Source: Massalongia carnosa (lineage: Eukaryota). From it: 64,000 nt of DNA. The notes below the pieces were generated by a model. It was not told the DNA's origin and made no database searches. It saw nothing but the letters and a program-made list of their open reading frames with translations. The position numbers and the translations under genes are program-made. Where the stretch lies: contig OZ287080.1 of assembly GCA_965645245.1 (NCBI GenBank), forward strand, positions 868,001 through 932,000. The letters are read 5' to 3'. Below are positions 2,076 through 62,981 of this stretch, piece after piece (positions within the stretch are counted from its first letter, which is position 1; each line of letters opens with the position of its first letter).

Positions 2076-3169
2076 ACCGAATTTCAGCTGCATAATGGTA
2101 GCAAATATCATTTTCGAACAATTGTTTGACAAATGATAAAAGCTCGATTTGCCAGGTTGCATATCAAATTTCTCGTAATGTTTGCCTTTTGACCTGCATC
2201 GTTGCCATTGATTCGTCCATGTGTTTAGCGTATTTTGATGAATTTGACTTTTCAAGTAGTCAAATATGATCGCCGAGGACTCCGCTATGATTTGACTGTG
2301 TCCTGCTTTCGCCATTTTGTCTGCAATTTTATTTTCGATAATTTTCGAATGACTAGGAATCCATTGCAGAATTATCTGATAGTTGTTTTAGAATAAACAT
2401 TTTGCAATCTTTCGAATTTGCTTCGCATAAATATGATTTGTTAAATGTTGAATTTCGTTTATCGCGTTCAAACTATCGGAAAAAATCCATATTGTTTTTT
2501 CTAAATTCGATAATATATTCTCGTTCGTTAACTTGTATACCCATTTGACTGCTTGTAAAATCGCATGAAGTTCAGCATTTTTAATGCTTGACTGTTTGCT
2601 CAATTTCCAGCTTTTCGAAATTGTATGATGTTGGATAAGGCAATCTTTTTCGATAAAGTGATCGAAATCATCGATAAAATTGTTCCATTTTCGCATAATT
2701 GGTGCGAATGTGACTGCAGAAGTTGCAAATTCTACTTTGATCCATCTGTATAAAGTAATATTCGTGATATTTCGGAATTCATAGATTGAATTTTGGACAA
2801 AGTCGAATATTAACTTGATTTTGCTGTTTCTTTTGACTTTTGATTTGAAATTCGATTTCACACGACGACTTCCATGGTTTTATGAAGTTATTTAATTGTT
2901 CGAATTTATCAGTTTTGTGAACTATGTCCGAAACGGAGTGCAAAACACGAATAAGCTGACTAGGATGTCGTTTATTTGTTTGTTTTTCGTCTTCGTTCCA
3001 TTCGGCATATTTGTTGTTCCATAAGCTAGTATCAAAACCGATGTTTTCGAATTTCATCGAATATGTGTTTGGAATTCTTTGACAAATGGGATTATTTTCG
3101 GCAATCTTCAACAATCGAATAGCATATTTGTGATTTTTCATCAATAATCGTAGTTTGACTGGTAGAATA

Positions 3170-3322
3170 TACCCGTTTGCAAAATGGTGTGCCGAACTTT
3201 GAACCCCGAAACTGCGCGGTAAAAAAAAAAATAAGCGACAGAATTGGACCACACTCCAGAATTTGGTGCAGTAGCTAATGGCACTCCTCCCCTTCACACC
3301 GCCTTTTGCAGTCTGTAGGATA
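3170..3322 (+). repeat. Left TIR (153 bp)
   Basis: (c/t)acccgtttgcaaaatggtgtgccgaac...gtctgtaggata, the reverse complement of 6507-6659 with a few mismatches. Confidence 0.95.
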
Positions 3323-3385
3323 AAAGATATGTAGTGTTTTCATGTAGATCTTTATTCTTGCTACCTCGTAGTTTCAAAAGCAAAC

Positions 3386-4421
3386 ATGGGACGATCATTC
3401 AGCATCATCAAACGCCAGGCTATAAAGCTCAGACTGGAATCGGGTGAAGATGATAACACGATCATAACTGCTACTGGTGTCAGCATCAGACAACTACGTA
3501 AGATGAGACGTAATTGGGAACGGTTCAATGAGGTTGCAAAACCTCAGCTTGCTGCTGGCCGGCGCAAGAAACTGAATCAACAACAAATCGATCAACTACT
3601 CGTGTATCTGGATCAGAGACCTACCTCTTATTTGGATGAGATGTTCTGGATTTTGTATGATGAATTCGACGTCTTGGTGAGCGAGTCTACGGTTTCTCGA
3701 ACTCTGAAGCAGATGGCCTGGAATCGAAAGATGGCCATTCGTATAGCACAACAACGCAACCAATCTTTGCGTGATGAGTGGATGATTAGACTGGGAGGAT
3801 GGAGGGCTGATCAGTTGATTTTTCTGGACGAAAGCGCTGCATGCGAGCGTACTGGTCAGTACGATTTGAAGAACTTCAGTTTCTTTGCTAATTGTTATTA
3901 CTTTAGGTGATCGTCGATATGGATGGGCCGCACCAGGAATCAATCCGACCATGATTCAAGCGCTCAAACGTTCTAAGAGATGGAGTATATTACCAGCGTT
4001 CACCATCGACGGTTTCATAGCTTGAGAGGTGCATCATGGCTCTATAATATCAGATATTCTGAATGAATTCGTCAGGCTCAAGGTTTTACCATACTGCGCT
4101 GGAGGTAATGGTCCTCGTTCGGTTTTGATTATGGATAATGCCTCTATACATTGGAGTGAGGAATTGAGGATCATGTGTCAGGATGCAAATGTTTTGCTGG
4201 TTCATTTGCCTCCGTATTCACCCGATTTTAATCCAATAGAGACTTCATTCTCTATTCTAAATGCCCGGATTAAAAGTCACAGCATTTTAATTGATTCATA
4301 TAAAGAGGAAACTGGTGGATTTGGGAGATTTTTAGAAGATGCACTGCAGGCTATAAGTGAAGATGTTTCACATGATGCAGGTGCATTGTTTCGACAGTCT
4401 AGTATTGAATATAACTCATAA
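3386..4421 (+). pseudogene. DD34E (DDE_3-type) transposase, ~327 aa, two exons (3386-3854, 3907-4421), one premature stop
   Basis: N-terminal HTH-like region, FLDES, MDNASIH and LPPYSPDFNPIE, with 34 residues between D and E. Removing a 52-nt GTCAGT...GCTAAT...TTTAG intron restores the frame (ERTG/DRRYGW). TGA at 4023-4025 is TGG in copy 2. Confidence 0.9.
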
Positions 4422-4436
4422 AATTTAATTTTCTCA

Positions 4437-6440
4437 TCAGCTACTGTCTTCCGCATCATCCTCCTCGTCCTCCTCGTCCTCCTGATTGTCCTCCTCCTCG
4501 TCCTCTTCCCCCTCCTCCTCCTCCTCCTCCTCCTACTCCTCATCCTCGTCTAGGTCCTCCTCATTTTCCTCTCCCTCCTCCTCGTCATTCAAATCCTTTT
4601 GTGTAGTCCCAGTAGTTAACGGACGAAGATTGAAGCTTGGCCGGAAATTCTTTGACAGAGATTGACCGGAGGAACGTGATTCTGATAGAAGAGGAACAAT
4701 TACAGGTTCAGAATCGTGCTCGGATGATTGCTGCTTCAATTGTCTAGCAAATTTGCTGACATCGCGAGCCAAACGTATGCCGATGCCAGGTTCGATTCCT
4801 ATTTTCTCCTATTTTTCCTCATAAGCAGTACCTTTCCACTGCTGTATGGTTTGTAAATCATAGCACTTATCCTCCAGTATGTTATAGGCGTGTCTAAATT
4901 GAAACTTCAATCTAGGTGTGATTTTTATATGCCATAAAATATAATCATACAAATCACCTTGCTCCACTGGACTGCTTGGAATAGGAACGGAGGTGAGGCT
5001 TAACGGTAGAGCAGTTGTTAATTCAGATAAGTTCTTCATCTTTTTATGCTTCTGCTTTACCTTCTTCTCCACTTTCTCCGATTTTTCTTGCTGAATAGGC
5101 TGTGCTGAAGGCATATTCTGATATACGGAAGGGGAAGGAAGGGGGAAATATGGTGAAGGATACAATAAGGCTGAGGGTTGCTGATATGGATATAAAAATG
5201 GATAATGAGGAGGTGGATATGCTGGACCTGCTGTCATCGAATATATTGCCGAAGGGACGGATTCCTTAACGATTGCTTTTTGCTCTTTCTTTTCGAGAGC
5301 ATCGGCCTTTCGTTTTGATGAAAAAAGAACCTCTAGTGTAGTCGGTGGAGGCCTTTCATGAGTGGATTTTCCCTCCTCGATGGCTTGGGTCTAAGCATTA
5401 ATATGAGCTGCATTCAGCGGATAATGCTTTTCATTATCAATCTAGCAATATTTGCCTTTGAATTTGCATCTCGAACTAGTGCATAACCACATGCTTTGCA
5501 AGGCCTCCAGACGTTTATCCAGATCATCTCGTAAAATTGCACGCTCTTCTCGCTGAGCCAACAGTTTATCCGTCTTTGTGGTCCTCTTTTTGCTTCTGCC
5601 TTTGCCTCCAGCGACAGCGTCAGCAACAATGAGAGCAGCAGCAGATTCATGTCGAGAATTATTGACTAGAGCGTCATCAACAGCTGAATTGATCGTCAAT
5701 GGAACGATTCCATAGCTTCTACGGGCAAAATAATAGGAACATTCTACACTCAGTCCTCTTTTGTTATCATGATTAAGCTGACGAAGAATTTCTTCTACGT
5801 TTGCCCATGTTTGATAGGCTGAATGTTTGAGCAAGGAAGAAGTATGTTTTTCATCCTTTTTAATGGCCTTCCAAACGATAGTAAAGGTAGCAGACACTCT
5901 ATGACAAGACCAGCCCTTATTATCGGCATGAGTGCTGGCTAACGCTTCCTGTTGTTTATGCAGAGAAAGAAGATTGATCCTCCGAGTTCCATCCACCGTT
6001 GCCGCCTTTACTTCGATATCTATCTTTTCCGCTTCAAACATTGTCTTTGTCACTAGAGTAAACAAAATAGGCTCGGGCTCAGGCTCGGGTTCAGGCTCAG
6101 GCTCAGGCTCAGGTTCAGGAGTACTAGATAACTCAGAAAGATAAGGAGAAGGCGTACTATTGCGAGACGGACGAATATTCCTTGGCTCGGGAAGGAGGAG
6201 ACGAGGAGGAGGTAAAGGCGAAGCCGAAGGAGAAGATGGAGGAGATGGTGAAGGTGGACGTGATGGAAGATCAGGAATACGGGTATTTAAAACTGGTGAT
6301 GATGCTCTAGGAGGATTGATTCTAAGCCTTTGTTTGGATAGAGGTGATGAGTTCCTAGGCAATTCAGTAGTAGATGCTCGTTTTCTGGGTTGTTTGGAGG
6401 GCTGTTTTGAAGGCTGTTAAGGAGGCTGTTTTCGAGGCAT
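4437..6440 (-). pseudogene. Second (cargo/accessory) gene of the Tc1-like element, ~667 codons, function unknown; five in-frame stops
   Basis: ORF-track pieces 5442-6362, 4809-5237 and 4533-4772 are all in frame with the ATG at 6440 (MPRKQPP). Stops at 6417-19 and 4809-11 are AAA and TGG in copy 2. Contains WLCTSSRCKFKGKYC*IDNEKHYPL, a (PE)n run and an acidic tail. Confidence 0.8.
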
Positions 6441-6506
6441 GATGACTGGAATTACTACGTTGAAAGTTCATACAAACGACAATCAAAAGGATATCATTAA
6501 TCGTAC

Positions 6507-6659
6507 TATCCTATAGACTGCAAAAGGCGGTGTTAAGGGGAGGAGGGCCGTTAGCTACTGCACCAAATTCTGGTGTGTGATCCAATTCTGTCGCTTATTT
6601 TTTTTTTTACCGCGCAGTTTCGGGGTTCAAAGTTCGGCACACCATTTTGCAAACGGGTT
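6507..6659 (-). repeat. Right TIR (153 bp)
   Basis: tatcctatagactgcaaaagg...cacaccattttgcaaacgggtt. Confidence 0.95.
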
Positions 6660-6689
6660 TATGTGATTCAATTTCTATCGCCTGAACAG

Positions 6690-7202
6690 TTTTTTTTTTT
6701 TTTATTCATTAAGTGTATTCAACCTAAGGTTATGACACTAAACTATTTTTGGATATGTTTCTATATTACAAATAAATCAACCTTTTATAACCCATCTATC
6801 TATTGTCAATTTTTCCCCATTTTTACTCCGTGTTAGTAACAACCTATAGTAATCGAAGAATATCGATTTTAAAATTTGTCTTTGTAAGTTCGTGAATGTT
6901 TCAGCATAAATCGTTTCTAATTTTACTGTTCGATCTCTCCCCAACCTCCAGTTTCGAAAATCTCGTCATCAAGCTGACCTAATATTAATTTTCTTGTTGC
7001 GATTTAGTTATTGACAATGAATTTAATCAAAATGTCATTTCCGATTTTTGTATTAAACAACATATTCAAATTGATCGTAGTATCGATATTTTGTTTCATG
7101 TTTTGAATTTCATCGAAATAGTGAATGCAATTCAATAACAAGTGTATTGGCGTTTGTCGTTGATTGCATCGATTTGTGTATTTTGACGAATTATAATCTT
7201 TC
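6690..7202 (-). pseudogene. LINE 3' fragment with 3'UTR and A-rich tail
   Basis: T-run at 6690, conserved 3'UTR and ETGGWGEIEQ-like C-terminus. Confidence 0.9.
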
Positions 7203-16990: not shown

Positions 16991-17936
16991 GAACATTCGT
17001 CAAACGCCAGCAGCAATAAGCCAACCCCCACACCAAAGACCACCTATCGAAACACAAGTACCGCAACTTTTGATACTCTAAAACTTTCATAGTCAATTGA
17101 ACATCTCTTTCTCAGTCATTTGAGCTCCTCCAGATCAAAAACGGACTCAGATTGAGTGTAGGAGAGCTCTAGCAAAGCTCCAGCAGAGATTTTCTGCTGG
17201 TCGCACGCGACAGACGTGATAAAGCGCGCTCAAGAAGTTATAAAAAACAACAAATACCAACAATATCACCAAAAATCGCTCTTTTTTCTCACTTTCTTCT
17301 GTTCTGTTGTCGCATTACCCTCAATTATTACTACAAGAATTATCTACAAAAAATATCTACTGTCGCGGTACTGTACAACAACTGTCGCGACGACCAACTT
17401 TTTTGAAGTTCATTTCTCATTTAAGGTTACGGGAACTTCCGCAAGCTCAAATATTCACAGTATATTTCACGTATAATTTCTGCATATACCATTTTAGGCT
17501 TTATCGATCTCCATTGAACGGCCGGTCAACAGATCACTGAAAAGAAGGGGAAAAACGTCTGGAATAGGATTATACCAAAGATCCTATTTCAGATTAATCA
17601 GAATAGGAAGTCTCTTATTATCTTACCTTGCCTTAGATCTATTTTTATCGCAAAAAAGCAAAAAAAAAACCCTTTCATTATTTTCAACTATTGTAGTGTC
17701 TGGTAAAGGGTTAAATAAGATTTACTGCCTAAGCGAGGAACGGTCTATTTTAACCCGATTAGGATTTATTTGACGAGTTATTGTCATATAAATAGGGATA
17801 GGAAAGCAAGAGTCGTTAGACCTGTAAATTGGTGTAAATTTCTATTCTGATTAGTACGTCCGGGGAACATCAGAATAAATTATTTGGTGGTGATAAAAGG
17901 GATATTGAAAAGGCATATCGATTTATTTATTAAATC

Positions 17937-19322
17937 ATGTTCAATCCGGTACTCCCTAGGACTCGACGAATTATATCGAGAGCCTCCCCGGGAACACCCC
18001 CGAGTTCTCCTCAAAACCCTCCCCAAATGGAATCTCCGGGGCTCTCGTCAGTAGGACTTATAGAAAAATCGCCTGTACTTGACGAGCCTATGGATCAATC
18101 ACATGAATATTCGTCCGCCCCGACTACGCCGACCCCAAAAGCAACCAAATTCCCATCTGGACAATTTACTACCAATCTACCCATGCTATCGTTAAATTCT
18201 AATATAGAATTAAGCCCGCCCATCAAACGTAACAAACGAAAAACATTCGACGAACGAGTAGAGGAAAGCCAAGAAGCAATCAATCGAGCACAATCGATTG
18301 GATTACTCAAAACGGCTAAAACCGCGTTATTGAAGTCATTTGTCTTAGATCAAAATCCAGAAACAGCAATAGTCATTGATAATGTCAATTCCTTATTGAC
18401 AAAAAAATCAATTAATATCAAAACAACACTAGACATGATGAATTGGAAATTGGACAAGGTAATTGATCAGACTAGTAATCGAACCTCAGAAACAACGCGA
18501 AAATCGACTCGGGTTCAACAAGTCAATATGACTGAAAATCCAAATAAAGTCGTCAACACGAACGCACGAAAGGAAACCGCCGGGGTTACGAGTACAAAGG
18601 TCAATAACACGCCTCCATCCTGGAGTCAAATGCTTGGAAAAGCAACTGCGAATTCCGAAAATTGGACCACTGTTTCCAGATCGAAAAATTCGAGTCAAAC
18701 CTCGAACAAACTCGACAAAACCGACGAATTAAATGCAATCAAACTCAGACGACTGATAATTACACCAAAAATTCAAATCGGCGATATCGACTCATTGAAA
18801 CTTCGAGATCAAATCAACGCGCAATTCAGCAACGCGAAGTTAGATATCGTAATCAACACGGTCGAAAAATCGAAAACCGGTCAGAATATCGTTCTCACTA
18901 CTAGTTCGAAAAACACTGCTGCAGAATTGTTGGGTAACAAATCTATATGGGAACATATGTTCGATGCACAAAGATTTCGAAAAGACGAATCCTGGTTTAA
19001 AGTGATCGCACATGGAGTAAATATTGCAACGTTTGATCAAAATATGCAATTTTTGCAAAATGAAATCCAGAAATTCAACCTTAACATGGAATTGTGCGAT
19101 TTACCCAGATGGCTAGCGCGAGATCGCGAAAATAAAGTCAATTCTTCGGTCGTTTTGACTTTTAACGATCGAAATCAGGCCTTAAACGCGTTAAAAGGCG
19201 TAAATATCGCGGGAAAACACTGTGACACGGAAATATTTACTTCCGTTCGTCCGAATACACAATGTATTAATTGTCAAAAATTCGGACACAAGCATTATCA
19301 GTGTCGAAACAAATCAAAATGA
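17937..19322 (+). CDS. LINE ORF1 (gag-like), 461 aa, ending at a premature TGA after the first CCHC knuckle (full frame would end at 19511)
   Basis: CINCQKFGHKHYQC; homologous to the ORF1 at 38906. Confidence 0.8.
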   Translation: MFNPVLPRTRRIISRASPGTPPSSPQNPPQMESPGLSSVGLIEKSPVLDEPMDQSHEYSSAPTTPTPKATKFPSGQFTTNLPMLSLNSNIELSPPIKRNKRKTFDERVEESQEAINRAQSIGLLKTAKTALLKSFVLDQNPETAIVIDNVNSLLTKKSINIKTTLDMMNWKLDKVIDQTSNRTSETTRKSTRVQQVNMTENPNKVVNTNARKETAGVTSTKVNNTPPSWSQMLGKATANSENWTTVSRSKNSSQTSNKLDKTDELNAIKLRRLIITPKIQIGDIDSLKLRDQINAQFSNAKLDIVINTVEKSKTGQNIVLTTSSKNTAAELLGNKSIWEHMFDAQRFRKDESWFKVIAHGVNIATFDQNMQFLQNEIQKFNLNMELCDLPRWLARDRENKVNSSVVLTFNDRNQALNALKGVNIAGKHCDTEIFTSVRPNTQCINCQKFGHKHYQCRNKSK

Positions 19323-38000: not shown

Positions 38001-38905
38001 GGAAAAGGCCTTTAAACACTGAACAACAAGAAACACAAGTACCGCAACTTTTGATACACTATAACTTTAACAGTCAATTGAGCCTCTATTTCTCAGTCAT
38101 TTGCGCTCCTCCAGAGTTAAAACGCTCTCAGATTGAGTGTAGGAGAGCTCTAGCAAAGCTCCAGCAGAGTTTTTCTGCTGGTCGCACGCGACCGACGTGA
38201 TAAAGCGCGCTCTAGAAGTTGGAAAAAACAACAAATACCAACAACCTCACCAAAAATCGCTCTTTTTTCTTGTTTTCTTCTGTTCTGTTGTCGCATGACC
38301 TTCAATTATTACTATAAAAATTATCTACAAAAATTATCTACTCTCGCGGGACTGTACAACAACTGTCGCGACGTCAGAGTCTTCTAAAGTTCATTCCTCA
38401 TTTAAGGTTACGGGAACTTCCGCAAGCACAAATTTTCATAGCATATTTCACGTATAATTTTTGCACATTCCATTTTCGGCTTTATAGATCTTCGTTGAAC
38501 GGCCGGTCAACAGATCACTGAAAAGAAGGGGAAAAACGTCTGGAATAGGATTATACGAAAGGTCCTGTTTCAGATTAATCAGAATAGGAAGTCTCCTATT
38601 GTCTTACATTGCATTAAAATTTATCTTTATTGAAAAAAGCAAAAAAAAAACTTTCATTATTTTCACCTATTGTAGTGTCTGGTAAAGGGTTAAATAAGAC
38701 TTACTGCCTTAGCGAGGAACGGTCTATTTTAACCCGATTAGGATTTATTTGACGCGTTATAGTCAAATAAATAGGGATAGGAAAGAAAGAGTCATTTGAC
38801 CAGTAAACAAACAGGTGTAAATTCTATTCTGACTAGTACGTCCGGGGAAAGTCAGAATAAATTATTTGGTGGCGATAAAAGGGATATTGCAAAGGCAAAA
38901 ACACT

Positions 38906-40564
38906 ATGCTCAATCGAAGATTTAACCCGATAGGTCATAGACCAAATCGATTGATACCAACAACTCCTCCCCCAGGCCCCCCTCCACAACATCTATGGGT
39001 CCCCCCGAGTACTCCCCCGTGCCCCCCCCGAACCGACTCCCCCACGCCATCTTCGGTAGCGATAATTGGGAGCAACCCCCTAACCGTAGAATCCACGGAG
39101 GCCATGGACCAAACGCGAGAATTTTCGTCCGCACCGTCCACACCCACCCCAAAAACGAAACCTTTTGTCGCGCCATCTGGTGAATTCAGTACCAATCTGC
39201 CCATGCCATCATTGAATTCTGATATTCGACTGAGTCCACCAATTAAACGCAACAAAAGACGAACATTTGACGAACATTCGATTGAGAGTCAAGAAGTCAT
39301 CAATCGATCAAAATCGATTCAACTATTGAATACGGCAAAAAATGCATTATTAGAGTCATTCGTAATAGATCAAAACCCCGAAACGGCTATGGTCATCGAT
39401 CACGTCAATTCTCTACTGGCAAAGAAATCGATCAAGCCAAAAGCAACGTTAGAAATGATTGATTGGAAATTGAATAGGGTGCTAGAACAAACTAGCCAAA
39501 TTCCAGAAACAAAGAGACAATCGGTGCATCCTATACAGACAAAATCGAAGGGAAATTCAAATGGAAATTCGAATTTGACTCAAAACGTCAACCCAGAAAT
39601 TCGGAGCGAAACCGCCGGAGTCCCAGGGCCGCAGGTCAACGATACAGCTAGAACATGGAGCCAAATGCTCGGAAAAGCGACTGTCAATTCCGAAAATTGG
39701 ACTACCGTTCCTCGATCCAAAAAAACAAACAAGAACAACAACAATAATTCGAATGCGAACAAATTCGATAATACTGACGATTTCAAGGCGATCAAATCTC
39801 GACGATTGATAATCACACCGAAAGCTCAAATCGGCGATATCGATTCACTGTTGCTTCGAAACCAAATCAATTCGCTTTTTAAACACGCGAAATTGACTAT
39901 CGTTGTTAACACGGTCGAAAAGTCCAAAACGGGTCAAAACATCGTTCTGACTACTAGTCCTGATAACACTGCTGAAGATTTATTGAACAATAAATCAATA
40001 TGGGAGCATTTATTCGACCCACGAACAGTTCGAAAGGACGAATCGTGGTTCAAAGTCGTCGCACACGGTGTAAATATTGCAACATTTGATGAAAATATGC
40101 AATATTTGCAAGACGAAATTCAAAAGTTCAATTCGAACATGCAATTATGCGATGTTCCCAGATGGCTAGCACGTGATCGTCATAACAAGATCAAATCATC
40201 CGTTGTTTTGACATTCAATGATCGAAATATGGCCTTGAACGCGTTAAAAGGAGTCAATATCGCGGGCCGACATTGTGACACGGAAATATTTACCTCCGTT
40301 CGTCCAAACACACAATGCATTAATTGTCAAAAATTTGGACACAAGCATTATCAATGCAAAAGTCAAGCGAAATGCAGCATATGTGCGCAAAACCATGAAA
40401 CACGCAATCATGAATGCACAACATGCAAGTCAAAAATTGCTTGTGCACACGCCGTTGTCAAATGCGCGAATTGCAACAAGAATCATCAGTCCAATGATGA
40501 AAATTGTGAAATGGTTATATCGTTAAATGTTCGAAAATCGACTGACGAATTAGCCGCTTTGTAA
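38906..40564 (+). CDS. LINE ORF1 gag-like nucleic-acid-binding protein, 552 aa
   Basis: Pro-rich N-terminus; C-terminal CINCQKFGHKHYQC, CSICAQNH and CANCNKNH knuckles. Confidence 0.95.
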   Translation: MLNRRFNPIGHRPNRLIPTTPPPGPPPQHLWVPPSTPPCPPRTDSPTPSSVAIIGSNPLTVESTEAMDQTREFSSAPSTPTPKTKPFVAPSGEFSTNLPMPSLNSDIRLSPPIKRNKRRTFDEHSIESQEVINRSKSIQLLNTAKNALLESFVIDQNPETAMVIDHVNSLLAKKSIKPKATLEMIDWKLNRVLEQTSQIPETKRQSVHPIQTKSKGNSNGNSNLTQNVNPEIRSETAGVPGPQVNDTARTWSQMLGKATVNSENWTTVPRSKKTNKNNNNNSNANKFDNTDDFKAIKSRRLIITPKAQIGDIDSLLLRNQINSLFKHAKLTIVVNTVEKSKTGQNIVLTTSPDNTAEDLLNNKSIWEHLFDPRTVRKDESWFKVVAHGVNIATFDENMQYLQDEIQKFNSNMQLCDVPRWLARDRHNKIKSSVVLTFNDRNMALNALKGVNIAGRHCDTEIFTSVRPNTQCINCQKFGHKHYQCKSQAKCSICAQNHETRNHECTTCKSKIACAHAVVKCANCNKNHQSNDENCEMVISLNVRKSTDELAAL

Positions 40565-43500
40565 TGGCAGGACAGCATTCGTTGACAAACATCGAAAATA
40601 CACAAAATGTTAAATTTATTCAACATAATTGTGCAAAGTCAACGAATGCAATGATATCGTGTTTGGAATATGCTTTATCAAATCAAATTGATATTGTTTT
40701 GTTTCAGGAACCATGGACACGAGATCAAAAAACAATATCACATCCGTCATTTACATGTATTATGCCAAAAATAGCGACTTATCGCTCGAGAGTAGCTATA
40801 TTTGTCACAAATGGCAATTCCAAACTGCAATTCACGCCTAGAACGGATCTTATTGACGATTCCGATATGCAAATTATTGAAATTACAATTGATGAAGTTC
40901 GAAAAGTGCAGATTTTCAATATTTATAACGAAAAAAGTCAAAGTGATCGAGAAACATACACGATCGATCGACTTTTAATCCAATTACAACCAAAATCAAC
41001 TGATCAATTCGTCATCTGTGGAGATTTCAATGCACATCATAACTGGTGGAATTCGAAAATTCAACAAGCAATTCGATCAGAAAATCTTGTCAAATGGTTG
41101 AAATTAAACAGGTGTAGCTTGATAAACACACCTGACTTATGTACATACTATGCCCATTCTGGAAGTTCTTCATCTGTTATTGATTTAACTTTTGCAAATT
41201 CTAAAATCGAAAATGCAATTACAAATTGGTCAATCGATGAAAACGCAGTCACAGGTTCTGATCATGAAGTCATCCGATTTGAACTAATCGCATCTTTCAA
41301 AAACTTGACGTCACATGCAACCGCATTATCGAATAAATACAATTGCAATAAAGCTGATTGGAATAAATTCGCGAAGTATCTAGACGAAAATTCAACCATC
41401 TACGAATCACAAGTTCAAAGTTTATTGAATAATCATCAATTCGACGAATCAGCGATATATTTGCAAAACGTTATCAAAAACGCGGCTGAAATGTTTATTC
41501 CGAAAACGAAAATTTGTGCAAAATCGAAAAATTGGTGGTCGCATGATTTAACTGAACTTCGAAAAACCATGTGCAGACATCGTCGAGAATGGAAGAATTA
41601 TCCGTCCGATTTTAGTCATCGGACGTTTAAACATAGTCGAATCGAGTATTTTCATGCAATTCGAAAAGCAAAACAACAAACATGGTTGACTTTTCTTGAA
41701 AATGCAGCAAATAAAGATGTATTTACCGCGTATAAATACACTAAACCGCGAATATTCGAAAAAATACCGCCGATTCTACATGAAAACAAGCTAAATGTTC
41801 AGTTTGATGACAAATGCGATGCATTTGTGTCAGCAATGTATACAAAAAACCCATTTATTGACGATAATGAGGAAGATTTATCAAATCAAGACAGCGTAAA
41901 TGATGATAATTGGCCAGATTTGACCGAAAACGAGTTGAAAAATGCGATTAGTTTATTTAATCCGAAGAAAGCATGTGGACCTGATGCAATCAATTTTACA
42001 ATTGTTCAAAAATCGTTTCAATCGTTGAAAAACGTGTTTTTCATGATTTATTCGAAATTCATTCGAATCGGTTATCACCCGTTATGCTGGCGGACAGGAC
42101 TCGGTGCAGTTCTGAAAAAACCTAATAAATCGGACTATTCGTTTCCAAAATCATATCGAATTATCACATTATTAAATTGTCTTGGTAAAATTGCTGAGAA
42201 AATCGTTGCAAATCGACTAGCCTACTTCGGCGAAAATTCGAATTTACTCGATATCGAACAGATGGGCGGACGCAAAAATCATTCTGCAATTGACGCAGTA
42301 ATGAACGTTGTTCATGATATTGAAATTGCAAATAGAAATAAAAACGTTTTATCATGTTTATTACTCGATGTCAAAGGCGCATTTGACTTTGTCTCGATTA
42401 ATCAACTGCTAAATGTTATGAAAAAACTGAAATTATCTCGCATAATAATTCAATGGGTCAAGCATTTCATGACAAAGCGATCGATCAATTTGATATTTGA
42501 TGAAAATTTAAGCAAAACATATTATGTCGAATCAGGAATTCCACAAGGCTCACCAATCTCGCCTATTCTATTTCTGATTTACATTCGTCACTTGTTTCCG
42601 AAAATACGAATGAAATTCAATGCACATTCTCCCAGTTTTATTGACGATGTTGCAATATATGTCGAAAATAAAACTGCAAAACAGAATTGCAAAGAAATCG
42701 AAATCATAGTCAAAACGGCCTTTGATTGGGCCGCATCGAATAATGTCAAATTTGATGACGATAAATCTGAGCTGATTCACTTCGAAAAGACAAGAAATGT
42801 ATCGAAAGACAAATTGGAATTACCAAACGGGACAGTACTAGAACCGAAAAATGTAGTCAAATGGTTGGGCGTCTGGTTAGACCGAAAACTAAATTTCAAA
42901 AAACACGTCGAAATGCGGATCTCTTCTGCGAATCGATCGTTTTTTGCAATTCAGAATTTGATGAAATCCGAATGGGGTCTGAAACCGACCGCATGCAGAC
43001 AGCTCTATATGTCATGCATTATTCCTATTTCGGACTACGGCTCAGAAATTTGGTATAATGGTCAAAAGAAATATGAAAAACTATTTCAGAACCTACAAAA
43101 TCAAATGATTCGAAAGATTTTAGGAACTTTCAAAACCACACCTATTCAGGCTATGGAAATTGAATCACATGTTTTACCAGTTAAACTTCGATTATTAATG
43201 AAAAATCAAAAATACGCAATTCGATTATTGAAGATTGCCGAAAATAACCCTATTTGTCAAAGAATTCCAAATACATATTCGATAAAATTCGAAAATATCG
43301 GTTTTGACACAAGTTTATGGAACAACAAATATGCCGAATGGAACGAAGACGAAAAACAAACAAATAAACGACATCCTAGTCAGCTTATTCGCGTTCTTCA
43401 TTCCGTTTCCGATATAGTTCACAAAACTGATGAATTTGAACAATCAAATCATTTTATTAAACCTTGGAAATCGCCTTGCAAAATCAAATTTCAAATCGAA

Positions 43501-44598
43501 AATACAAAGGAATCTGCTAAATCAAGTTATTATTCGACCTTATCCAAAATTAAATCAATGAACTCCGATAAATCCCGAGTTTTACTTTATACAGATGGAT
43601 CGAAAATAGAATTTGCAACGTCTGCAGTCACATTTGCGCCAGTTATAAGGAATTGGAGTAATATTATCAATAATTTTAATCGATTTATCGAAAAAGATTG
43701 TCTGATCAAGTATCATACGATTTCGAAAAGCTGGAAATTAAGCAAAAAGTCAAGCATTAAAAATGCTGAACTGCATGCGATTTTACAAGCAATGAAATGG
43801 GTCTATAAATTGTCGAATACTAATATTTTATCGAACTTAGAAAAAACGATTTGGATTTTTTCTGATAGTATAAACGCGATAAACGAAATTCAGAACTTGA
43901 CAAATCATATTTTCGCCAGACAAATTCGAAAGCTCGCAAAAATCTTATTTGAAAGCAATTTTCAGGTGATTTTGCAATGGGTTCCGAGTCATTCAAATAT
44001 TACCGAAAACGAAATTGCAGACAAAATAGCAAAGACGGGCCAAAATCAAATCCTAGTCGAGTCCTCGGCGATAACATTTGATTATGTAAAAGATCAAATA
44101 AATCAAAATATGCTAACCACATGGACGAATCAATGGCAACAATGCAAATCAAAAGGCAAATACTACGAGAAATTCGAAATGAAACCTGGCATATCGAGAT
44201 TTTATTATTTATCAAACAACTGTTCCAAATTGATATTTGCTACTATTATGCAATTAAAATTCGGACACGGCTATTTTCGATCTTATTTACAGCGATTGAA
44301 AGATTATAATTCGTCAAAATGCACAAATCGATGCAATCAACGACAAACGCCAGAACACTTGTTATTGAATTGCATTCACTATTTCGATGAAATTCAAAAC
44401 ATGAAACAAAATATCGATACTACCATCAACTTGAATATGTTGTTTAATACAAAAATCGGAAATGACATTTTGATTAAATTCATTGTCAATAACAAAATCG
44501 CGACAAGAAAATGGATACTAGGTCAGCTTGATGACGAGTTTTCGAAACTGGAGGTTGGGGATAGATCGAACAGTAAAATCAGAAACGATTTATGCTGA
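40564..44598 (+). CDS. LINE ORF2 polyprotein: AP endonuclease, reverse transcriptase, RNase H, CCHC; 1344 aa
   Basis: QHN/QEP/GDFNAHH/IDL/SDH; KACGPD, LDVKGAFD, PQGSP, FIDD, WLGV; YTDGS/NAEL/FSDS/NEIAD; CTNRC...H...C. A 1-nt deletion near 44539 replaces the usual IFETGGWGEIEQ end. Confidence 0.95.
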   Translation: MAGQHSLTNIENTQNVKFIQHNCAKSTNAMISCLEYALSNQIDIVLFQEPWTRDQKTISHPSFTCIMPKIATYRSRVAIFVTNGNSKLQFTPRTDLIDDSDMQIIEITIDEVRKVQIFNIYNEKSQSDRETYTIDRLLIQLQPKSTDQFVICGDFNAHHNWWNSKIQQAIRSENLVKWLKLNRCSLINTPDLCTYYAHSGSSSSVIDLTFANSKIENAITNWSIDENAVTGSDHEVIRFELIASFKNLTSHATALSNKYNCNKADWNKFAKYLDENSTIYESQVQSLLNNHQFDESAIYLQNVIKNAAEMFIPKTKICAKSKNWWSHDLTELRKTMCRHRREWKNYPSDFSHRTFKHSRIEYFHAIRKAKQQTWLTFLENAANKDVFTAYKYTKPRIFEKIPPILHENKLNVQFDDKCDAFVSAMYTKNPFIDDNEEDLSNQDSVNDDNWPDLTENELKNAISLFNPKKACGPDAINFTIVQKSFQSLKNVFFMIYSKFIRIGYHPLCWRTGLGAVLKKPNKSDYSFPKSYRIITLLNCLGKIAEKIVANRLAYFGENSNLLDIEQMGGRKNHSAIDAVMNVVHDIEIANRNKNVLSCLLLDVKGAFDFVSINQLLNVMKKLKLSRIIIQWVKHFMTKRSINLIFDENLSKTYYVESGIPQGSPISPILFLIYIRHLFPKIRMKFNAHSPSFIDDVAIYVENKTAKQNCKEIEIIVKTAFDWAASNNVKFDDDKSELIHFEKTRNVSKDKLELPNGTVLEPKNVVKWLGVWLDRKLNFKKHVEMRISSANRSFFAIQNLMKSEWGLKPTACRQLYMSCIIPISDYGSEIWYNGQKKYEKLFQNLQNQMIRKILGTFKTTPIQAMEIESHVLPVKLRLLMKNQKYAIRLLKIAENNPICQRIPNTYSIKFENIGFDTSLWNNKYAEWNEDEKQTNKRHPSQLIRVLHSVSDIVHKTDEFEQSNHFIKPWKSPCKIKFQIENTKESAKSSYYSTLSKIKSMNSDKSRVLLYTDGSKIEFATSAVTFAPVIRNWSNIINNFNRFIEKDCLIKYHTISKSWKLSKKSSIKNAELHAILQAMKWVYKLSNTNILSNLEKTIWIFSDSINAINEIQNLTNHIFARQIRKLAKILFESNFQVILQWVPSHSNITENEIADKIAKTGQNQILVESSAITFDYVKDQINQNMLTTWTNQWQQCKSKGKYYEKFEMKPGISRFYYLSNNCSKLIFATIMQLKFGHGYFRSYLQRLKDYNSSKCTNRCNQRQTPEHLLLNCIHYFDEIQNMKQNIDTTINLNMLFNTKIGNDILIKFIVNNKIATRKWILGQLDDEFSKLEVGDRSNSKIRNDLC

Positions 44599-47985: not shown

Positions 47986-50640
47986 CGCCCGTTTGCAAAA
48001 TGGTGTGCCGAACTTTGAACCCCGAAACTGCGGGGTAAAAAAAAATATTAAGCTACAGAATTGGACCACACAGTAGAATTTGGTGCAGTAGCTAATGGCC
48101 CTCCTCCCTTTCACACCACCTTTTACAGTCTGTAGGATAAATGATATGTAGTGTTTTCATGTAGATCTTTATTCTTGCTACCTCGTAGTTTCAAAAGCAA
48201 ACATGGGACGATCATTCAGCATCATCAAACGCCAGGCTATAAAGTTCAGGCTGGAATCTGATGAAGATGCTACTGGTGTCAGCATTAGACAACTACGTAA
48301 GATGAGACATAATTGGGAACATTTCAGTGAGGTTGCAAAACCTCAGCTTGCTAGTGGACGGCGCAAGAAAATGAACCAACAACAAATCGAGCAACTACTC
48401 ATGTATCTGGATCAGAGACCTACCTCTTATTTGGACGAGATATGCTGGTTTTTGTATGATGAATTCGACGTCTTGGTGAGCGAGTCTACGGTTTCTCGAA
48501 CTCTTAAGCAGATGGCCTGGAATCGAAAGATGGCTATTCGTATAGCATAACAACGCAACCAATCTTTGCGTGATGAGAAGATGATTAGACTGGGAGGATG
48601 GAGGGCAGATCAGTTGATTTTCTGGACGAAAGCGCTACATGCGAGCATACTGGTCAGTACTATTTGAAGAACTTCAGTTTCTTTGCTAATTGTTATTACT
48701 TTAGGTGATCGTCGATATAGATGGGCCGCACCAGGAATCAAACCGACTATGATTCAAGCGCTCAAACTTTCTAAGAGATGGAGTATATTACTAGCGTTCA
48801 CCATCGACGGTTTTATAGCTTGGGAGGTGCATCATGGCTCTATAATATCAGATATTCTGAATGAATTCGTCAGGCTCAAGGCTTTACCATACTGCCCTGG
48901 AGGTAATGGTCCTCGTTCGGTTTTGATTATGGATAATGCCTCTATACATTGGAGTGAGGAATTGAGGATCATGTGTCAGGATGCATATGTTTTGCTGGTT
49001 CATTTGCCTCCGTAATCACCCGATTTTAATCCAATAGAGACTTCATTCTCTATTCTTAAGGCCTGGATTAAACGTTACAGTAGTTTAATTGATTCATATA
49101 TAGAGGAATCTGGTGGATTTGGGAGATTTTTAGAAGATGCACTTGTTAGATGGTAAGGACTAACATCTAACATCCATCTAGTTATTAGATGGTAAGAACT
49201 GTTAGAGGGTAAGTATTAGATGGTAAGAACTGTTAGACTACCATAATGGGCATCCGTCTAGTGCCTATCTTTGGTGACCCTACCACGGGGGCCGAAGTGA
49301 CCTCTGGGGACCGAGAATCAGTGGACCAGCTGACTCCCTATGAAAGAGGGTCGCCGGAAAGTCTTCAATGTGACTGCTATATAATGAGTAGATAGCTCAC
49401 ATATAATCCAAACCTTCAATAACAATCATGCTATTATACCTACAAAGTGAAGCTATATTTTCATAGCACTACAGGCTATAAGTGAAGATGTTTCACATGA
49501 TGCAGGTGCATTGTTTCGACAGTCTAGTATTGAATAAAACTCATAAAAATCAATTTCCTCATCAGCTACTGTCTTCCGTATCATCCTCCTCGTCCTCCTC
49601 ATCCTCCTCATCCTCCTCGTCCTCCTCGTCCTCCTCGTCCTCCTCGTCCTCCTCGTCCTCCTCGTCCTCCTCGTCCTCCTGATTGTCCTCCTCCTCTTCC
49701 TCCTCATCGTCCTCGTCAAGGTCCTCCTCCTTCTCCTCTCCCTCCTCCTCGTCATTCAAAGCCTTTTGTGTAGTCCTAGTAGTTAGCGGACGTATATTGA
49801 AGCTTGGCCGGAAATTCTTTGGCAAAGATTGACTGGAGGAACGTGATTCTGATGGAGGAGGAGGAACAATTATAGGTTCAGAATCGTGCTCGGATGATTG
49901 CTGCTTCAATTGTCTAGCAAATTTGCTGACATCGCGAGCCAAACGTATGCCGATGCCAGGTTGGATTCCCATTTTCTCCCATTTTTCCTCATAAACAGTA
50001 CCTTTCCACTGCTGAATGGTGTGGTTTGTAAATCAGAGTAAACAAAACAGGCTCGGGCTCAGGCTCAGGCTCAGGTTCAGGAGCACTAGATAGCTCGGAA
50101 AGACAAGGAGAAGGCGTACTACTGCGAGTCGGACGAACATTCCTTGGCTCGGGGAGGAGGAGACGATGAGGAGGTAAAGGCGAAGCCGAAGGAGAAGCTG
50201 GAGGAGATGGTAAAGGTGGACGTGATGGAAGATCAGGAATACGGGCATTTAAAACTGGTGATGATGATCTAGGAGGATTGATTCTAAGCCTTTGTTTAAA
50301 TGAACGTGCTGAGTTCCTAGGTAATTCAGTAGTAGATGCTCGTTTTCATGATTGTTTGGAGGGCTGTTTGGGGGGCTGTTTTAAAGGCTGTTTAGGAGGC
50401 TGTTTTCGAGGCATGATGACTGGAATAACTACGTTGAAAGTTCATACAAACGACAATCAAAAGGATATCATTAACCATATTATCCTATAGACTGCCAAGG
50501 GCAGTGTGAAGGGGAGGAGGGCTATTAGCTATGTACTGCACCAAATTCTGTTGTGTGGTCCAATTCTGTCGCTTATTATTTTTTTTTTTACCGCGCAGTT
50601 TCGGGGTTCAAAGTTGGGCACACCATTTTGCAAACGGGTG
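47986..50640 (+). mobile_element. Tc1/IS630-like transposon, copy 2 (defective)
   Basis: Same TIRs (cgcccgtttgc...gcaaacgggtg) with TA at 47984-85 and aa at 50641-42. The transposase from 48203 has stops and a frameshift and keeps the intron (48653-48704). The second gene has a ~1.2-kb deletion at ~50035. Confidence 0.95.
49144..49465 (+). mobile_element. Solo LTR (322 bp) inserted in the copy-2 transposase
   Basis: 5-bp TSD gcact (49139-49143, 49466-49470); empty site at ~4341 in copy 1; begins TGTTAG and ends CATA; TATA-like motif at ~49378. Confidence 0.85.
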
Positions 50641-51205
50641 AATAATAAGAATTTTACGATCGAACAGAAAATTTTTTTTTTTAAAAAATGTTTTTGATCC
50701 AGAAATAAAAATCAAGTACAATGAGAGAGTAGGAGACTTCCTATTCTGGTTAGCTTGAAACAGGGCCTTTGGTTTAACCCTATTTCAGACGTTTTTCCCC
50801 TTCGTTTCAGCAGATTGTTGGTCGGCAGTTCAACGAAAATCGAAAAAACCCAAAATGGAATAGTGTATACGGTACCGGTAACCTTAAATTTCAAATGAAT
50901 ACCAAGAAGTTTTGTTGTCTCGAGAACAGGTTGTACAGTTACGCGACAGTGATGTTATTTTGTAGATAATTTTTGTGATAATAGATGAGATCTATGCGAC
51001 AATTAAACCGAAGAAATATCGAAAATCGAGCGATTTTTGACGTTGTTGTTGTTGTTTTTGTGTTTTGTAGATTTTTTGGACGCGCTTTTTGGTGAAGGGG
51101 CGGACTGACCGCGAGGAAAACTCTGCAGGAGCAGTGGAAGAGCTCTCCTGTACCCAATTCTGATGGGTTTTAGCATCTGGTAGGCTCAAATGAATGAGAA
51201 GAATG

Positions 51206-55900: not shown

Positions 55901-56239
55901 TAAATCTTGCAACAACCAATTTTTCGATTTTGCACAAATTTTCGTTTTTGGAATAAACATTTCAGCCGCGTTTTTGATAAATATATCGCTGATTCGTCGA
56001 ATTGATGATTATTCAATAAACTTTGAATTTTTGATTCGTAGATCTTTGAATTTTCGTCTAGGTACTTCGCGAAACTATACCAATCGGCATTATTGCAATT
56101 GTATTTATTCGATAATGCGGTTGCATGTGACGTCAAGTTTTGGAAAGATGCGATTAGTTCAAATCGTATGACTTCATGATCGGAACCTGTGACTGCGTTT
56201 TCATCGATTGACCAATTTGTAATTGCATTTTCGATTTTA
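52973..56239 (-). pseudogene. 5'-truncated LINE ORF2 (late APE, RT, RNase H), degenerate
   Basis: ORF pieces between 53041 and 56136. Confidence 0.92.
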
Positions 56240-56637
56240 ACATGGTCGGTTCATAAACGGGAGACCTTTATGAATAACGCGAAGTGGGCGTAAAAAACCC
56301 GTGAGGCGTGGTATGCAATGGCGGCCACCGTACGGAGACCGTCTGCATAGCCCGAAAGGACAGTATGCGCATGTCGGTGTATATAGAACAGGGAATTTCT
56401 ATCTCGCTCGTACCGAGACCCCGTCGGTTCGCCGGCGCATGGGCTACGGCTAGACTCCCCCTTGATATATGCTTAAGGAGTAAACTGGGTTTGACCTGGG
56501 CGAAAGGGACGTCGTTCACCCCAATCGTAGAATTTATCAATAATCTTAGGCCGTAAAACGCACCAGTGAGATGAACGAAAACTGGGATAGAGACCTCACG
56601 AAGGAGATGTCAACTCTATTTTATCATTCCTAGCCCG
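56240..56637 (+). mobile_element. Non-coding structured repeat, copy 1, 3' part, fused to B-type LINE ORF1
   Basis: Collinear with 30668-31065; ends ...attcctagcccg. Confidence 0.85.
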
Positions 56638-62600: not shown

Positions 62601-62981
62601 GAATATGTTGTTTAATACAAAAATTGGAAATGACATTTTGATTAAATTCATTGTCAATAACAAAATCGCGACTAGAAAATGGATACTAGGTCAGCTTGAT
62701 GACGAAATTGTTGAAACGGGAGGCTGTGGAGAGATCGAACAGTAAAATCAGATATGATTTATGTTGAAACATTTACGAACTTACTAAGACAAATTGTAAA
62801 ATCGATAATTTCTCGATTACTATAGGTTGTTACTAACACGGAGTAAAAACGGGGGAAAATTGTCGATACATAGATGGGTTATAAAGGGTTGATTTATTTG
62901 TATTATAGAAACATATCCTAAAATATTTTAGTTTCATAACCTTAGGTTGAATACACTTAATGAATAAATAAAAATAAAAAA
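56632..62981 (+). mobile_element. B-type LINE lacking its 5'UTR and ORF1 start (56632-60528 plus 61333-62981), multiple stops
   Basis: Collinear with 18213 onward; TAATG at 57919; tail at ~62960-62981. Confidence 0.92.
60529..61332 (+). mobile_element. 5'-truncated LINE (0.8 kb) nested in the same orientation
   Basis: TSD tgaatcacatgt (60517-60528) and tgagtcacatgt (61333-61344); has its own 3'UTR and tail. Confidence 0.9.

Follow-up and report, generated by a model that had tools for sequence, protein, structure and literature searches.

We asked whether positions 3170–6660 of a 64,000-nt stretch of the Massalongia carnosa genome (the whole stretch analysed, hereafter the window) hold a genuine two-gene transposon of the Tc1 type and, if so, what its second gene, ORF2, might do there. 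It does hold a genuine two-gene, cut-and-paste element, now decayed, which belongs to the Tc1 branch of IS630-Tc1-mariner. This copy (copy 1), a DNA transposon of 3.49 kb, is composed as follows:

3168–3169, no strand: left TA target-site duplication; LINE copies without the insertion read ...AATA followed by TG(C/T)GATTC, with one TA.
3170–3322, plus strand: left TIR, 153 nt, from the arm-to-arm comparison (96%).
3386–3854, plus strand: transposase exon 1, with the putative HTH DNA-binding part and the first D of the DDE triad; the splice fits the relatives' consensus ERTGxRxxGW.
3855–3906, plus strand: transposase intron, 52 nt, GT..AG, read from the sequence.
3907–4421, plus strand: transposase exon 2, with the DDE_3 core (DD34E), an in-frame TGA at 4024–4026 and the stop TAA at 4419–4421.
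4422–4436, no strand: A+T-rich spacer of 15 nt between the two convergent stop codons; the same 15-nt spacing is found in copy 2 at 49547–49561.
4437–6440, minus strand: ORF2, 666 codons in one frame plus a stop, with in-frame stops at 6417–6419, 5442–5444, 5391–5393, 4809–4811 and 4533–4535.
6507–6660, minus strand: right TIR, from the arm-to-arm comparison (96%).
6661–6662, no strand: right TA target-site duplication, from the sequence and the uninterrupted LINE copies.

The TIR arms, taken with their flanks (3167–3322 and 6507–6662), were 156 nt long and 96% complementary, and a second comparison of the left arm with the right gave 152 nt at 96%. A 46-nt terminal word was present at each of the four ends of two copies, giving four occurrences in the window where none was expected. 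The TIR of copy 1 showed no direct-repeat (IR/DR) substructure, and a search of window positions 3000–6800 gave no Rfam family. Copy 1 was inserted into a LINE, in LINE-rich surroundings of an A+T-rich fungal genome. The empty site could be read in two ways: LINE copies elsewhere in the window were uninterrupted at this point and carried a single TA, and contigs of other runs joined 3167 directly to 6660. The window itself is a dense pile of nested repeats. The geometry given in the initial annotation was reproduced, with the transposase ATG (3386) 63 nt inside the left TIR and the ORF2 ATG (6440, minus strand) 66 nt inside the right TIR; 216–219 nt of element precede each ATG, 153 nt of which are TIR. 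The two convergent genes fill the element as had been claimed, and their stop codons (4419–4421 and 4437–4439) lie 15 nt apart.

The assignment to the Tc1/IS630 type was also borne out, as DDE_3, DD34E, the TA duplication and the TIRs were all present. The spliced transposase, of 327 codons plus a stop, was colinear with 64 relatives, in which the triad D148, D234 and E269 was invariant or near-invariant. It matched Pfam DDE_3 (PF13358) with an E-value of 2.7e-22 and 79.6 bits against a cut-off of 28.6, and by hand count 34 residues lead from the second D (MDNAS) to the E (NPIE). The N-terminus matched HTH_32, HTH_33 and HTH_23 at E-values of 3e-5 to 1e-4, below the Pfam cut-offs, and the relatives carry PF13592 and PF13565 according to precomputed matches. 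Identity to the 120 listed relatives was 38–55%; those named come from Lachnellula, Penicillium, Colletotrichum, Purpureocillium and Paramyrothecium. The Pfam scan of the transposase returned no Mutator family. Because the transposase is of the DDE_3 (DD34E) kind and the duplication is TA, the element is not of the Mutator type. The gene of copy 1 has a single in-frame stop (TGA, 4024–4026); in all or nearly all other contig depth, position 4025 changes from A to G, which gives TGG and no stop.

ORF2 is more heavily damaged, with five in-frame stops (codons 8, 333, 350, 544 and 636), four of which read K or W in other copies. Other contigs showed T to C at 5392 and 4810 in all or nearly all depth, the relative P0005 has W at both codons 333 and 350, and copy 2 has K at codon 8 and W at codon 544. 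The family consensus is uninterrupted at the points where the window copy is broken. Three regions of the protein were recognized:

5424–5489, minus strand: Cys/His motif W-x-C-x4-C-x6-C-(W)...H, codons 318–339, with C320, C325, C332 and H339 invariant in 20 sequences.
4731–4976, minus strand: SSPV motif and C-terminal helical domain, codons ~489–570, ...IQxWK...W..LGI(K/E)PGIGxxLA, from the alignment of 20 sequences.
4443–4589, minus strand: acidic D/E tail, codons ~618–666, encoded by a TCC/TCCTCC-type tandem array.

A search of 1.84 billion representatives found 121 relatives of ORF2 at E<=1e-3, 41 at E<=1e-10 and five at E<=1e-30. In an alignment of 20 sequences with 20–35% identity, P364, S489, S490, P491 and A518 were invariant together with the four Cys/His residues, and G552 was near-invariant. 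The Cys/His motif was present in 25 of 30 relatives of at least 350 aa. Among 17 long relatives, ten have an acidic stretch (at least 10 D/E in 30 aa) after the C-terminal domain, and nine a basic [KR]3..S motif. The family signature consists, in order, of W-x-C-x4-C-x(4-10)-C...H, SSP[VI] and ...LGI(K/E)PG(I/V)G..LA; the window ORF2 has all three, and all three strict patterns were found in 16 of the 122 sequences scanned, many of which are fragments. Judged by these sequence comparisons, ORF2 is a member of an unnamed, conserved fungal protein family.

Searches against known families gave little. No Pfam family matched more than two of the 105 ORF2 relatives scanned, and no SAM or HhH model matched any of 105 family members at E<=1; Myb/SANT was absent from the 25 Pfam families listed for 105 relatives at the same threshold. 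Neither ORF2 nor 18 long relatives had Pfam matches to RuvC, OrfB_Zn_ribbon, recombinase, nuclease or methyltransferase families. Searches of PDB sequences, NCBIfam and PHROGs with ORF2 and its relatives yielded nothing usable. A word-based search with ORF2 gave no match of similar length, and one with its alignment recovered, apart from the piece in the window itself, a single close copy. A metagenome scan with P0050 found no relative, nor did the prokaryote genomes and viral contigs scanned contain any. We considered ORF2 as a transposase derivative and rejected this, the profile comparison with the transposase giving a probability of 0.1%. Among named clusters, those of the SAM domain came closest to the C-terminal domain, with Atlas scores of 0.80–0.83 (0.76 for the whole protein), scores below 0.9 serving as leads only. 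Together with the motif seen by eye, they offer a lead that this domain may be SAM/helix-hairpin-helix-like.

We then compared copy 1 with the second copy in the window.

47986–50640, plus strand: copy 2, a derivative from the same family, deleted internally and doubly broken.
49144–49465, no strand: foreign insertion of 322 bp at the 3' end of the copy 2 transposase gene, with GCACT duplication flanks; unique in the window.
49562–50414, minus strand: ORF2 remnant of copy 2, in which ~128 codons from the start and ~140 from the end are kept in different reading frames.

The initial annotation had taken copy 2 to have the same layout, and the second gene to be, on that account, a stable part of the family. 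The former holds for the ends, the gene orientation and the 15-nt gap between the stops, all of which copy 2 retains. However, its ORF2 is frameshifted and lacks ~1195 bp (4861–6055 of copy 1, codons ~129–526), and its transposase gene is broken by deletions of 18 bp and 1 bp, premature stops and the 322-bp insertion. With ORF2 mostly deleted, copy 2 alone is no proof that the whole second gene is a stable family part. The empty site of copy 2 lies at window position ~26024; its left TA is intact, and the right reads AA. In runs X2 and X3, loose ends carried the same junctions of the 322-bp insertion. A contig joint of the same form as the copy 2 deletion (4853 to 6055) was found in runs X2, X3 and X5, and another (4683 to 6193) in runs X1, X2 and X5. 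Contigs bridging large ORF2 deletions thus occurred in all four runs compared, indicating that ORF2 is dispensable in cis. Copies 1 and 2 are both dead. Between them, 80 of 138 differences are transitions, and pN/pS from this one comparison was not significantly different from 1 for ORF2 (0.70, p 0.21) or for the transposase (0.64, p 0.14). RIP as the source of the TGG-to-TAG stops was rejected, as the indices were not RIP-like (TA/AT 0.68; (CA+TG)/(AC+GT) 1.43) and transitions made up no more than those 80 of the 138 differences.

Association of ORF2 with the transposase was next examined in other assemblies. At the metagenome locus L004, a relative of ORF2 (23% identity, E 8e-19) is followed, after 89 nt, by a convergent DDE_3 transposase piece with 45% identity to the window transposase (E 1e-31). 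L001–L003, which are one locus in three assemblies, have an ORF2 relative around which no transposase lies within 5.7 kb; these loci and L004 cease to be similar exactly at the transposase stop. All four share one in-frame stop and a frameshift, indicating that they are dead relics. In addition, three of 30 ORF2 clusters sit on contigs whose length and source match exactly those of contigs with transposase relatives, namely the relatives ranked 1, 4 and 12 of 120:

P0015 (ORF2) and P0134 (transposase), 4066 bp.
P0012 (ORF2) and P0137 (transposase), 10484 bp.
P0068 (ORF2) and P0145 (transposase), 50441 bp.

Linkage in these three pairs is inferred from the equal sizes, not seen in DNA, and the estimate for chance size matches among short contigs is ~0.4. 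A fourth match, at 2471 bp (P0006 and P0148), is probably due to chance, P0148 lying in another clade. In the transposase tree, the window element, P0134, P0137 and the L004 piece fell into one clade of 11 rows (SH-aLRT 98), and P0145 into a sister part of a 39-row group. The pairing recurs with transposases that are 41–51% identical. Pairwise distances of ORF2 and the transposase were uncorrelated (Spearman -0.08, 10 pairs). Since ORF2 belongs to a conserved family, and relatives of it adjoin transposases from that same group in other assemblies, it is long-standing cargo of this lineage. The possibility raised earlier, that the partner is a host gene captured once, is countered by the 121 relatives and the convergent pairing that recurs at L004; an old conserved element-borne gene is supported rather than a recent single capture.

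The explanation that we prefer, and hold on balance to be probable, is a decayed two-gene Tc1-like element in which ORF2 is long-standing cargo and encodes a trans-acting accessory protein. Its product would be a nuclear protein that binds nucleic acid or chromatin, with a putative basic N-terminus, a conserved middle domain, a Cys3-His metal-binding motif and the SSPV motif, followed on the C-terminal side by a SAM/helix-hairpin-helix-like domain and the acidic tail. It may act in trans with the transposase, e.g., in nuclear delivery, in end recognition or synapsis, or in regulating how it transposes; by analogy, PIF/Harbinger, En/Spm and MuDR encode proteins other than the transposase that have such roles. 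If ORF2 acts in trans, copies without most of it, such as copy 2 and those with the deletion joints, could still move. Both genes are predicted to be driven from the TIR-proximal 216–219 nt, probably with transcripts that overlap at their 3' ends. We tentatively extend this, in a form that we would sooner doubt than accept, to an old Tc1-like lineage of filamentous, notably lichen-forming, ascomycetes that is two-component: each autonomous element would encode a hitherto undescribed Cys3-His/SAM-like nuclear protein, driven from the opposite TIR and required for or controlling transposition, and the overlap of the convergent messages may be self-regulatory.

ORF2 might instead have been captured long ago by one Tc1-like lineage and have no part in transposition, rendering another service or none and being lost repeatedly. 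We judge this unlikely, although several observations are in line with it. Tc1/mariner transposases are classically self-sufficient, ORF2 and transposase distances show no co-divergence, and L001–L003 hold an ORF2 relative by itself. Summed contig depth was lower over the middle of ORF2 than over the transposase half, although such depth cannot rank gene parts. Derivatives that have lost most of ORF2 exist, as copy 2 and both contig joints attest; however, trans-acting genes, too, are as a rule lost from non-autonomous derivatives. A neutral passenger would not have retained the Cys/His, SSPV and C-terminal motifs, which persist at 20–35% identity over 121 relatives, and the recurrence of the pairing across such diverged transposases argues in the same direction. 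That ORF2 came from another element or a host gene and lies inside the Tc1-like element by accident is very improbable. The lack of a known family for ORF2 and the abundance of nested repeats in the window would agree with such an accident, but no second pair of ends or duplication surrounds ORF2, which occupies all the space between the transposase stop and a point 66 nt short of the TIR. Moreover, the arrangement is repeated in copy 2 and, with far-diverged genes, at L004, and the three equal-sized contig matches speak against accident as well.

A further reading concerns regulation: two identical TIRs would be symmetric promoters, and convergent overlapping transcripts would form dsRNA that tunes or silences the element, by analogy with MuDR. 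We regard this as possible and lean against it. With an ATG so close to each tip, an element-borne promoter, if there is one, has to sit within 216–219 nt of the tip. Between the stops lie 15 nt in both copies and 89 nt at L004; with gaps this short, the poly(A) sites must be placed within or very close to the opposite gene, and with 15 nt between the stops some 3' overlap is likely. According to passages of PMC3440606, MuDR has convergent genes, promoters within its ~215-bp TIRs and antisense RNA from failed termination, but sense transcripts are not suppressed by that antisense RNA. In the window element, the 63- and 66-nt stretches from TIR to ATG are dissimilar to each other; therefore, the promoters do not have to be symmetric. 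Both transcripts could also end, with only a short overlap, in the A+T-rich patch at the stops.

Comparison with known systems places the element more closely. It shares the DDE_3 core, TA duplication and TIRs, and putatively an HTH N-terminus, with fungal Tc1-like elements, whose DDE_3 transposases go by the name "Tc1-like transposase DDE domain" in Pezizomycotina, but with its 2-kb second gene it is about twice their usual size, and its TIRs are long (153 bp). Impala is a related fungal Tc1 family. Its catalytic spacing is DD37E according to PMC7325037, whereas that of the window element is DD34E. The initial description of the element as MuDR-like is correct for the convergent two-gene layout and not for membership. 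MuDR of maize (mudrA/mudrB) also consists of two convergent genes that fill the element and start near long TIRs, and its second gene, like ORF2, has no known function. However, MuDR has a Mutator transposase where the window element has a Tc1 DDE_3 transposase, and the target duplication of MuDR is ~9 bp, compared with 2 bp (TA) here. PIF/Harbinger is a two-protein DNA transposon whose second protein is a DNA-binding helper in trans, the role proposed by analogy for ORF2; this Myb-like protein is said, in work by Sinzelle et al. from 2008, to act in nuclear import and end binding. PIF/Harbinger differs from the window element in its transposase type (DDE_3 here), its Myb-like second protein (ORF2 has no Myb/SANT match) and its duplication of 3 bp instead of TA. 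Canonical PIF/Harbinger elements encode two proteins according to PMC13668399.

The earlier statement that Tc1/mariner elements normally carry only a transposase was too strong, since relatives with extra genes have been published. Passages of PMC7325037 describe Tec and TBE of ciliates, and passages of PMC3627910 describe Mariner elements with Fanzor1, endonuclease or methyltransferase genes; in both, as in the window element, the extra genes lie inside TIRs and the duplications are TA. Fanzor-carrying Mariner elements encode a RuvC-like core and a C4 OrfB_Zn_ribbon, whereas ORF2 has no Pfam match to either and its metal motif is Cys3-His. Furthermore, the extra genes of these multi-gene relatives are swapped among chimeric elements, whereas ORF2 is conserved with one transposase group, and the hosts of the window-element family are filamentous ascomycetes. 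Sleeping Beauty, which is Tc1-like with long ends, depends on HMGB1, an acidic-tailed architectural protein that binds DNA, as reported in PMC5224488 and PMC7827188. HMGB1 is host-encoded, whereas ORF2 is element-borne and has no HMG box, and the TIR of the window element shows no direct-repeat substructure. In the literature searched, open-access papers without Repbase, no fungal element of the Tc1 type was described as carrying a second gene that is conserved.

Tc1/mariner elements are the model minimal transposons, for which one protein is enough in vitro. Because one protein suffices, they cross hosts easily and serve as gene-transfer tools. A branch that has long kept a second conserved gene suggests an added requirement or layer of control; possible layers are nuclear entry, end synapsis, chromatin access and defence against host silencing. 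With the present assignment, at least 121 fungal "hypothetical proteins" acquire a family name and a genomic setting, and annotators of lichen-fungus genomes would do well to regard members of the ORF2 family as transposon genes, not host genes. If the two-component reading is true, it would make this the first Tc1 lineage that depends on a helper, within a group cited in textbooks for self-sufficient transposition by a single protein.

The element in the window is a Tc1-like transposon that makes a TA duplication, and a second, conserved gene is carried by the same group of elements. Copy 1 is a real insertion: LINE paralogues of its flank continue uninterrupted across the site and have one TA there (window ~10067, ~36701 and ~54275), and contigs of other sequencing runs join 3167 straight to 6660. 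Therefore, we delimited copy 1 as 3170-6660 with a TA duplication. Copy 2 (47986-50640) has TA on its left and a mutated AA on its right, and its flanks are contiguous at window ~26024 (97% identity). A count of the 46-nt tip gave four occurrences in the window (expected 0), one at each end of each copy.

Features of copy 1
3167-3322 and 6507-6662: arms of the terminal inverted repeat (TIR), 156 nt, 96% complementary
3386 to 4419-4421, plus strand: transposase gene, start to stop, with one 52-nt GT..AG intron (3855-3906)
6440 to 4439-4437, minus strand: second gene (ORF2), ATG to stop, a single frame of 666 codons

The ATG lies 63 nt (transposase) or 66 nt (ORF2) from the inner TIR edge, and the convergent stops are 15 nt apart; the TIRs, ATG positions and stop spacing are as the initial annotation had read them in the sequence.

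Both copies were inserted into LINE copies. Window 7400-47800 and 51000-63600 are a pile of copies and fragments of this non-LTR retrotransposon, which has endonuclease, reverse transcriptase and RNase H domains (e.g. an uninterrupted 1350-codon frame, 40546-44598). Just upstream in LINE copies lie ORFs without any Pfam match (e.g. 38879-40564 and 17934-19322), probably the first gene of the LINE.

Transposase exon 2 matched DDE_3 in Pfam (E 2.7e-22), and exon 1 gave weak matches to three HTH families, all under the Pfam cut-offs. The D, D and E positions were invariant or nearly so in an alignment with 64 relatives, and 34 residues separate the second D from the E, indicating a DD34E element. 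When longer relatives of exon 2 were sought, 193 of 631 candidate proteins reached E ≤ 1e-10; the named ones among the 120 listed belong to Pezizomycotina and are called 'Tc1-like transposase DDE domain'. The MuDR likeness first proposed thus survives as a description of the convergent layout and fails as membership, because the element belongs to the Tc1 (DD34E) branch and is not a Mutator element. MuDR, the maize element with mudrA and mudrB, is described in the relevant sections of PMC3440606 as carrying convergently arranged genes, with promoters located inside its ~215-bp TIRs and with antisense transcription; the likeness is in layout only.

ORF2 had no above-threshold match in Pfam, NCBIfam, PHROGs or PDB sequences, and it is unrelated to the transposase of the element (hhalign probability 0.1%). 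HMMER, run exhaustively on 1.84 billion representatives, found 121 relatives at E ≤ 1e-3, of which 41 reach E ≤ 1e-10 and 5 reach E ≤ 1e-30; full-length proteins of 600-800 aa are among the relatives. In a Pfam scan, 17 of 18 long relatives matched no family, and over 105 family members each family was matched by at most 2. The remaining long relative, P0025, contains an N-terminal piece of DUF7924 (E 2e-20) and is probably a gene model fused with its neighbour; DUF7924 may likewise be a domain associated with fungal repeats. The two relatives with names, both 'hypothetical protein', come from bins of Brigantiaea leucoxantha and Kuettlingeria erythrocarpa, which are lichen fungi (Lecanoromycetes, Teloschistales), and about half of the element's words are present in one lichen metagenome run. 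An ORF2 fragment 85% identical to that of the window (P0005) and a 573-aa relative 29% identical (P0263) seemingly share one contig of 1,893,471 bp; two or more diverged second-gene lineages may therefore coexist in a single genome.

Parts of the ORF2 protein, from the N-terminus
1: basic N-terminus, with a [KR]3..S motif in 9 of 17 long relatives
2: conserved domain, ~170 aa
3: W-x-C-x4-C-x(n)-C-[WY]...H
4: proline-rich linker
5: SSPV
6: helical domain ending in LGI(K/E)PG(I/V)Gxx(L)A
7: acidic stretch, in 10 of 17 long relatives

Across 20 aligned sequences (20-35% identity), C320, C325, C332, H339, P364, S489, S490, P491 and A518 were invariant. The Cys/His pattern was present in 25 of 30 relatives of at least 350 aa, and the other five resemble low-complexity matches. 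By eye, we take the motif ending the helical domain to fit the helix-hairpin-helix pattern, and the named Atlas clusters nearest to the C-terminal domain were SAM-domain proteins (scores 0.80-0.83; whole ORF2, 0.76); these are leads rather than tests.

The two-gene reading of the initial annotation was supported and extends to relatives. Four metagenome loci (L001-L004) encode an ORF2 relative with 23-24% identity to the window ORF2 (E 8e-19 to 7e-17). In L004, a convergent DDE_3 transposase piece, 45% identical to that of the window (E 1e-31), lies 89 nt past the ORF2-relative stop; other sequence truncates the piece, removing its front half. L001-L003 represent a single locus from three assemblies (96-99% alike), in which no transposase was found within 5.7 kb of the ORF2 relative; their likeness to L004 ends at the transposase stop. 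All four share one in-frame stop and one frameshift and are therefore relics. The ORF2-like pseudogene sits inside a 4.4-kb unit common to L004 579-4958 and L002 3452-7627 (94.5-98% identity, sharp borders on both sides), which extends ~2 kb upstream of the ATG, a stretch containing a proline-rich minisatellite (L004 ~1231-2063), and has its right border exactly at the transposase stop codon.

Three of the 30 ORF2 clusters looked up were on contigs identical in bp size and source to those of transposase relatives.

ORF2 and transposase relatives on contigs of equal size and source
P0015 and P0134: 4066-bp contig
P0012 and P0137: 10484-bp contig
P0068 and P0145: 50441-bp contig

These transposase relatives rank 1, 4 and 12 among the 120 listed. 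A fourth size match (P0006 and P0148, 2471 bp) is doubtful, as the sources differ and P0148 falls in another clade. By a rough estimate, 0.4 such matches would arise by chance among short contigs, and for the two long contigs the chance expectation is close to zero. The three matches are indirect evidence of pairing, stronger than the four loci. For many ORF2 relatives the contig measures 3.3-4.3 kb, matching the window element in size. In the transposase trees, the window transposase, P0134, P0137 and the L004 piece fall in one 11-row clade (FastTree 94; IQ-TREE SH-aLRT 98), and P0145 is in the sister part of a 39-row group.

Both window copies are dead. In copy 1, a TGA (4024-4026) interrupts the transposase frame and five stops interrupt that of ORF2; the transposase of copy 2 has an 18-bp deletion, a 1-bp deletion and premature stops. 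That copy 2 has the same layout, as first claimed, is true of its ends, orientation and 15-nt spacing and was overstated for the second gene, which has lost codons ~129-526 in a frameshifting deletion of ~1195 bp. RIP was rejected as the source of the stops (TA/AT 0.68; (CA+TG)/(AC+GT) 1.43), and the 80 transitions among 138 differences between the copies were also counted against it. In all other contigs, position 4025 is G, giving TGG where copy 1 has TGA, and positions 5392 and 4810 are C, giving W at ORF2 codons 350 and 544; P0005 has W at codons 333 and 350, and in copy 2 codon 8 encodes K and codon 544 encodes W. The family behind the window copies thus looks intact at the broken positions. 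Copy 2 also carries a 322-bp insertion (49144-49465) with GCACT duplicated on both sides. It begins TGTTAG and occurs once in the window; contigs of runs X2 and X3 show its junction letters as loose ends. Possible identities are a solo LTR and a small non-autonomous element.

We found no sign of selection on recent copies in identity correlations, pN/pS of the window copies or the L004 differences, results that speak against a close partnership of the two genes. Pairwise identities of ORF2 and transposase were uncorrelated (Spearman -0.08; 10 pairs, 5 elements), with ORF2 identities of 19-29%, near saturation; adding the doubtful P0006/P0148 pair gave -0.02 (15 pairs). Between copies 1 and 2, pN/pS was 0.70 (Fisher p 0.21) in ORF2 and 0.64 (p 0.14) in the transposase, and L004 differs from L001-L003 at only 18-19 positions. 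Deep motif conservation is what argues for constraint on ORF2.

Extra genes are described, in the sections concerned, for the Tc1/mariner relatives Tec and TBE of ciliates (PMC7325037) and for Mariner elements with Fanzor1, endonuclease or methyltransferase genes (PMC3627910); ORF2 matches none of the proteins named there. Second genes in Tc1/Mariner go unmentioned in the corresponding part of a survey of fungal cut-and-paste elements (PMC5751038), and full-text searches of open-access articles returned no description of a fungal Tc1-like lineage with a conserved second gene.

Upstream of each ATG the element offers only its TIR-proximal 216-219 nt, and expression of both genes from these stretches is therefore likely. 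Each TIR contains an A run of 11-13 nt (T run on the other arm; 3218-3232 and 6596-6610), ~155-170 nt upstream of the facing ATG and differing in length among copies; that it could be a promoter element is pure conjecture. Since the stops are only 15 nt apart, some 3' overlap of the two transcripts is likely, and the A+T-rich patch around them (~4403-4439) could be a terminator for both genes.

An ORF2 deletion joint of the copy 2 type (4853 to 6055) is bridged by contigs in runs X2, X3 and X5, and such bridging of large deletions indicates that ORF2 is dispensable in cis. A second, different internal joint (4683 to 6193; runs X1, X2 and X5), present in other copies of the element, skips 1509 bp with five other letters at the joint. 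We tentatively propose, with somewhat less than even confidence, that the ORF2 protein is supplied in trans and acts in the nucleus as a helper or regulator that binds nucleic acids or chromatin; such supply would explain why autonomous copies conserve the gene and derivatives have lost it.
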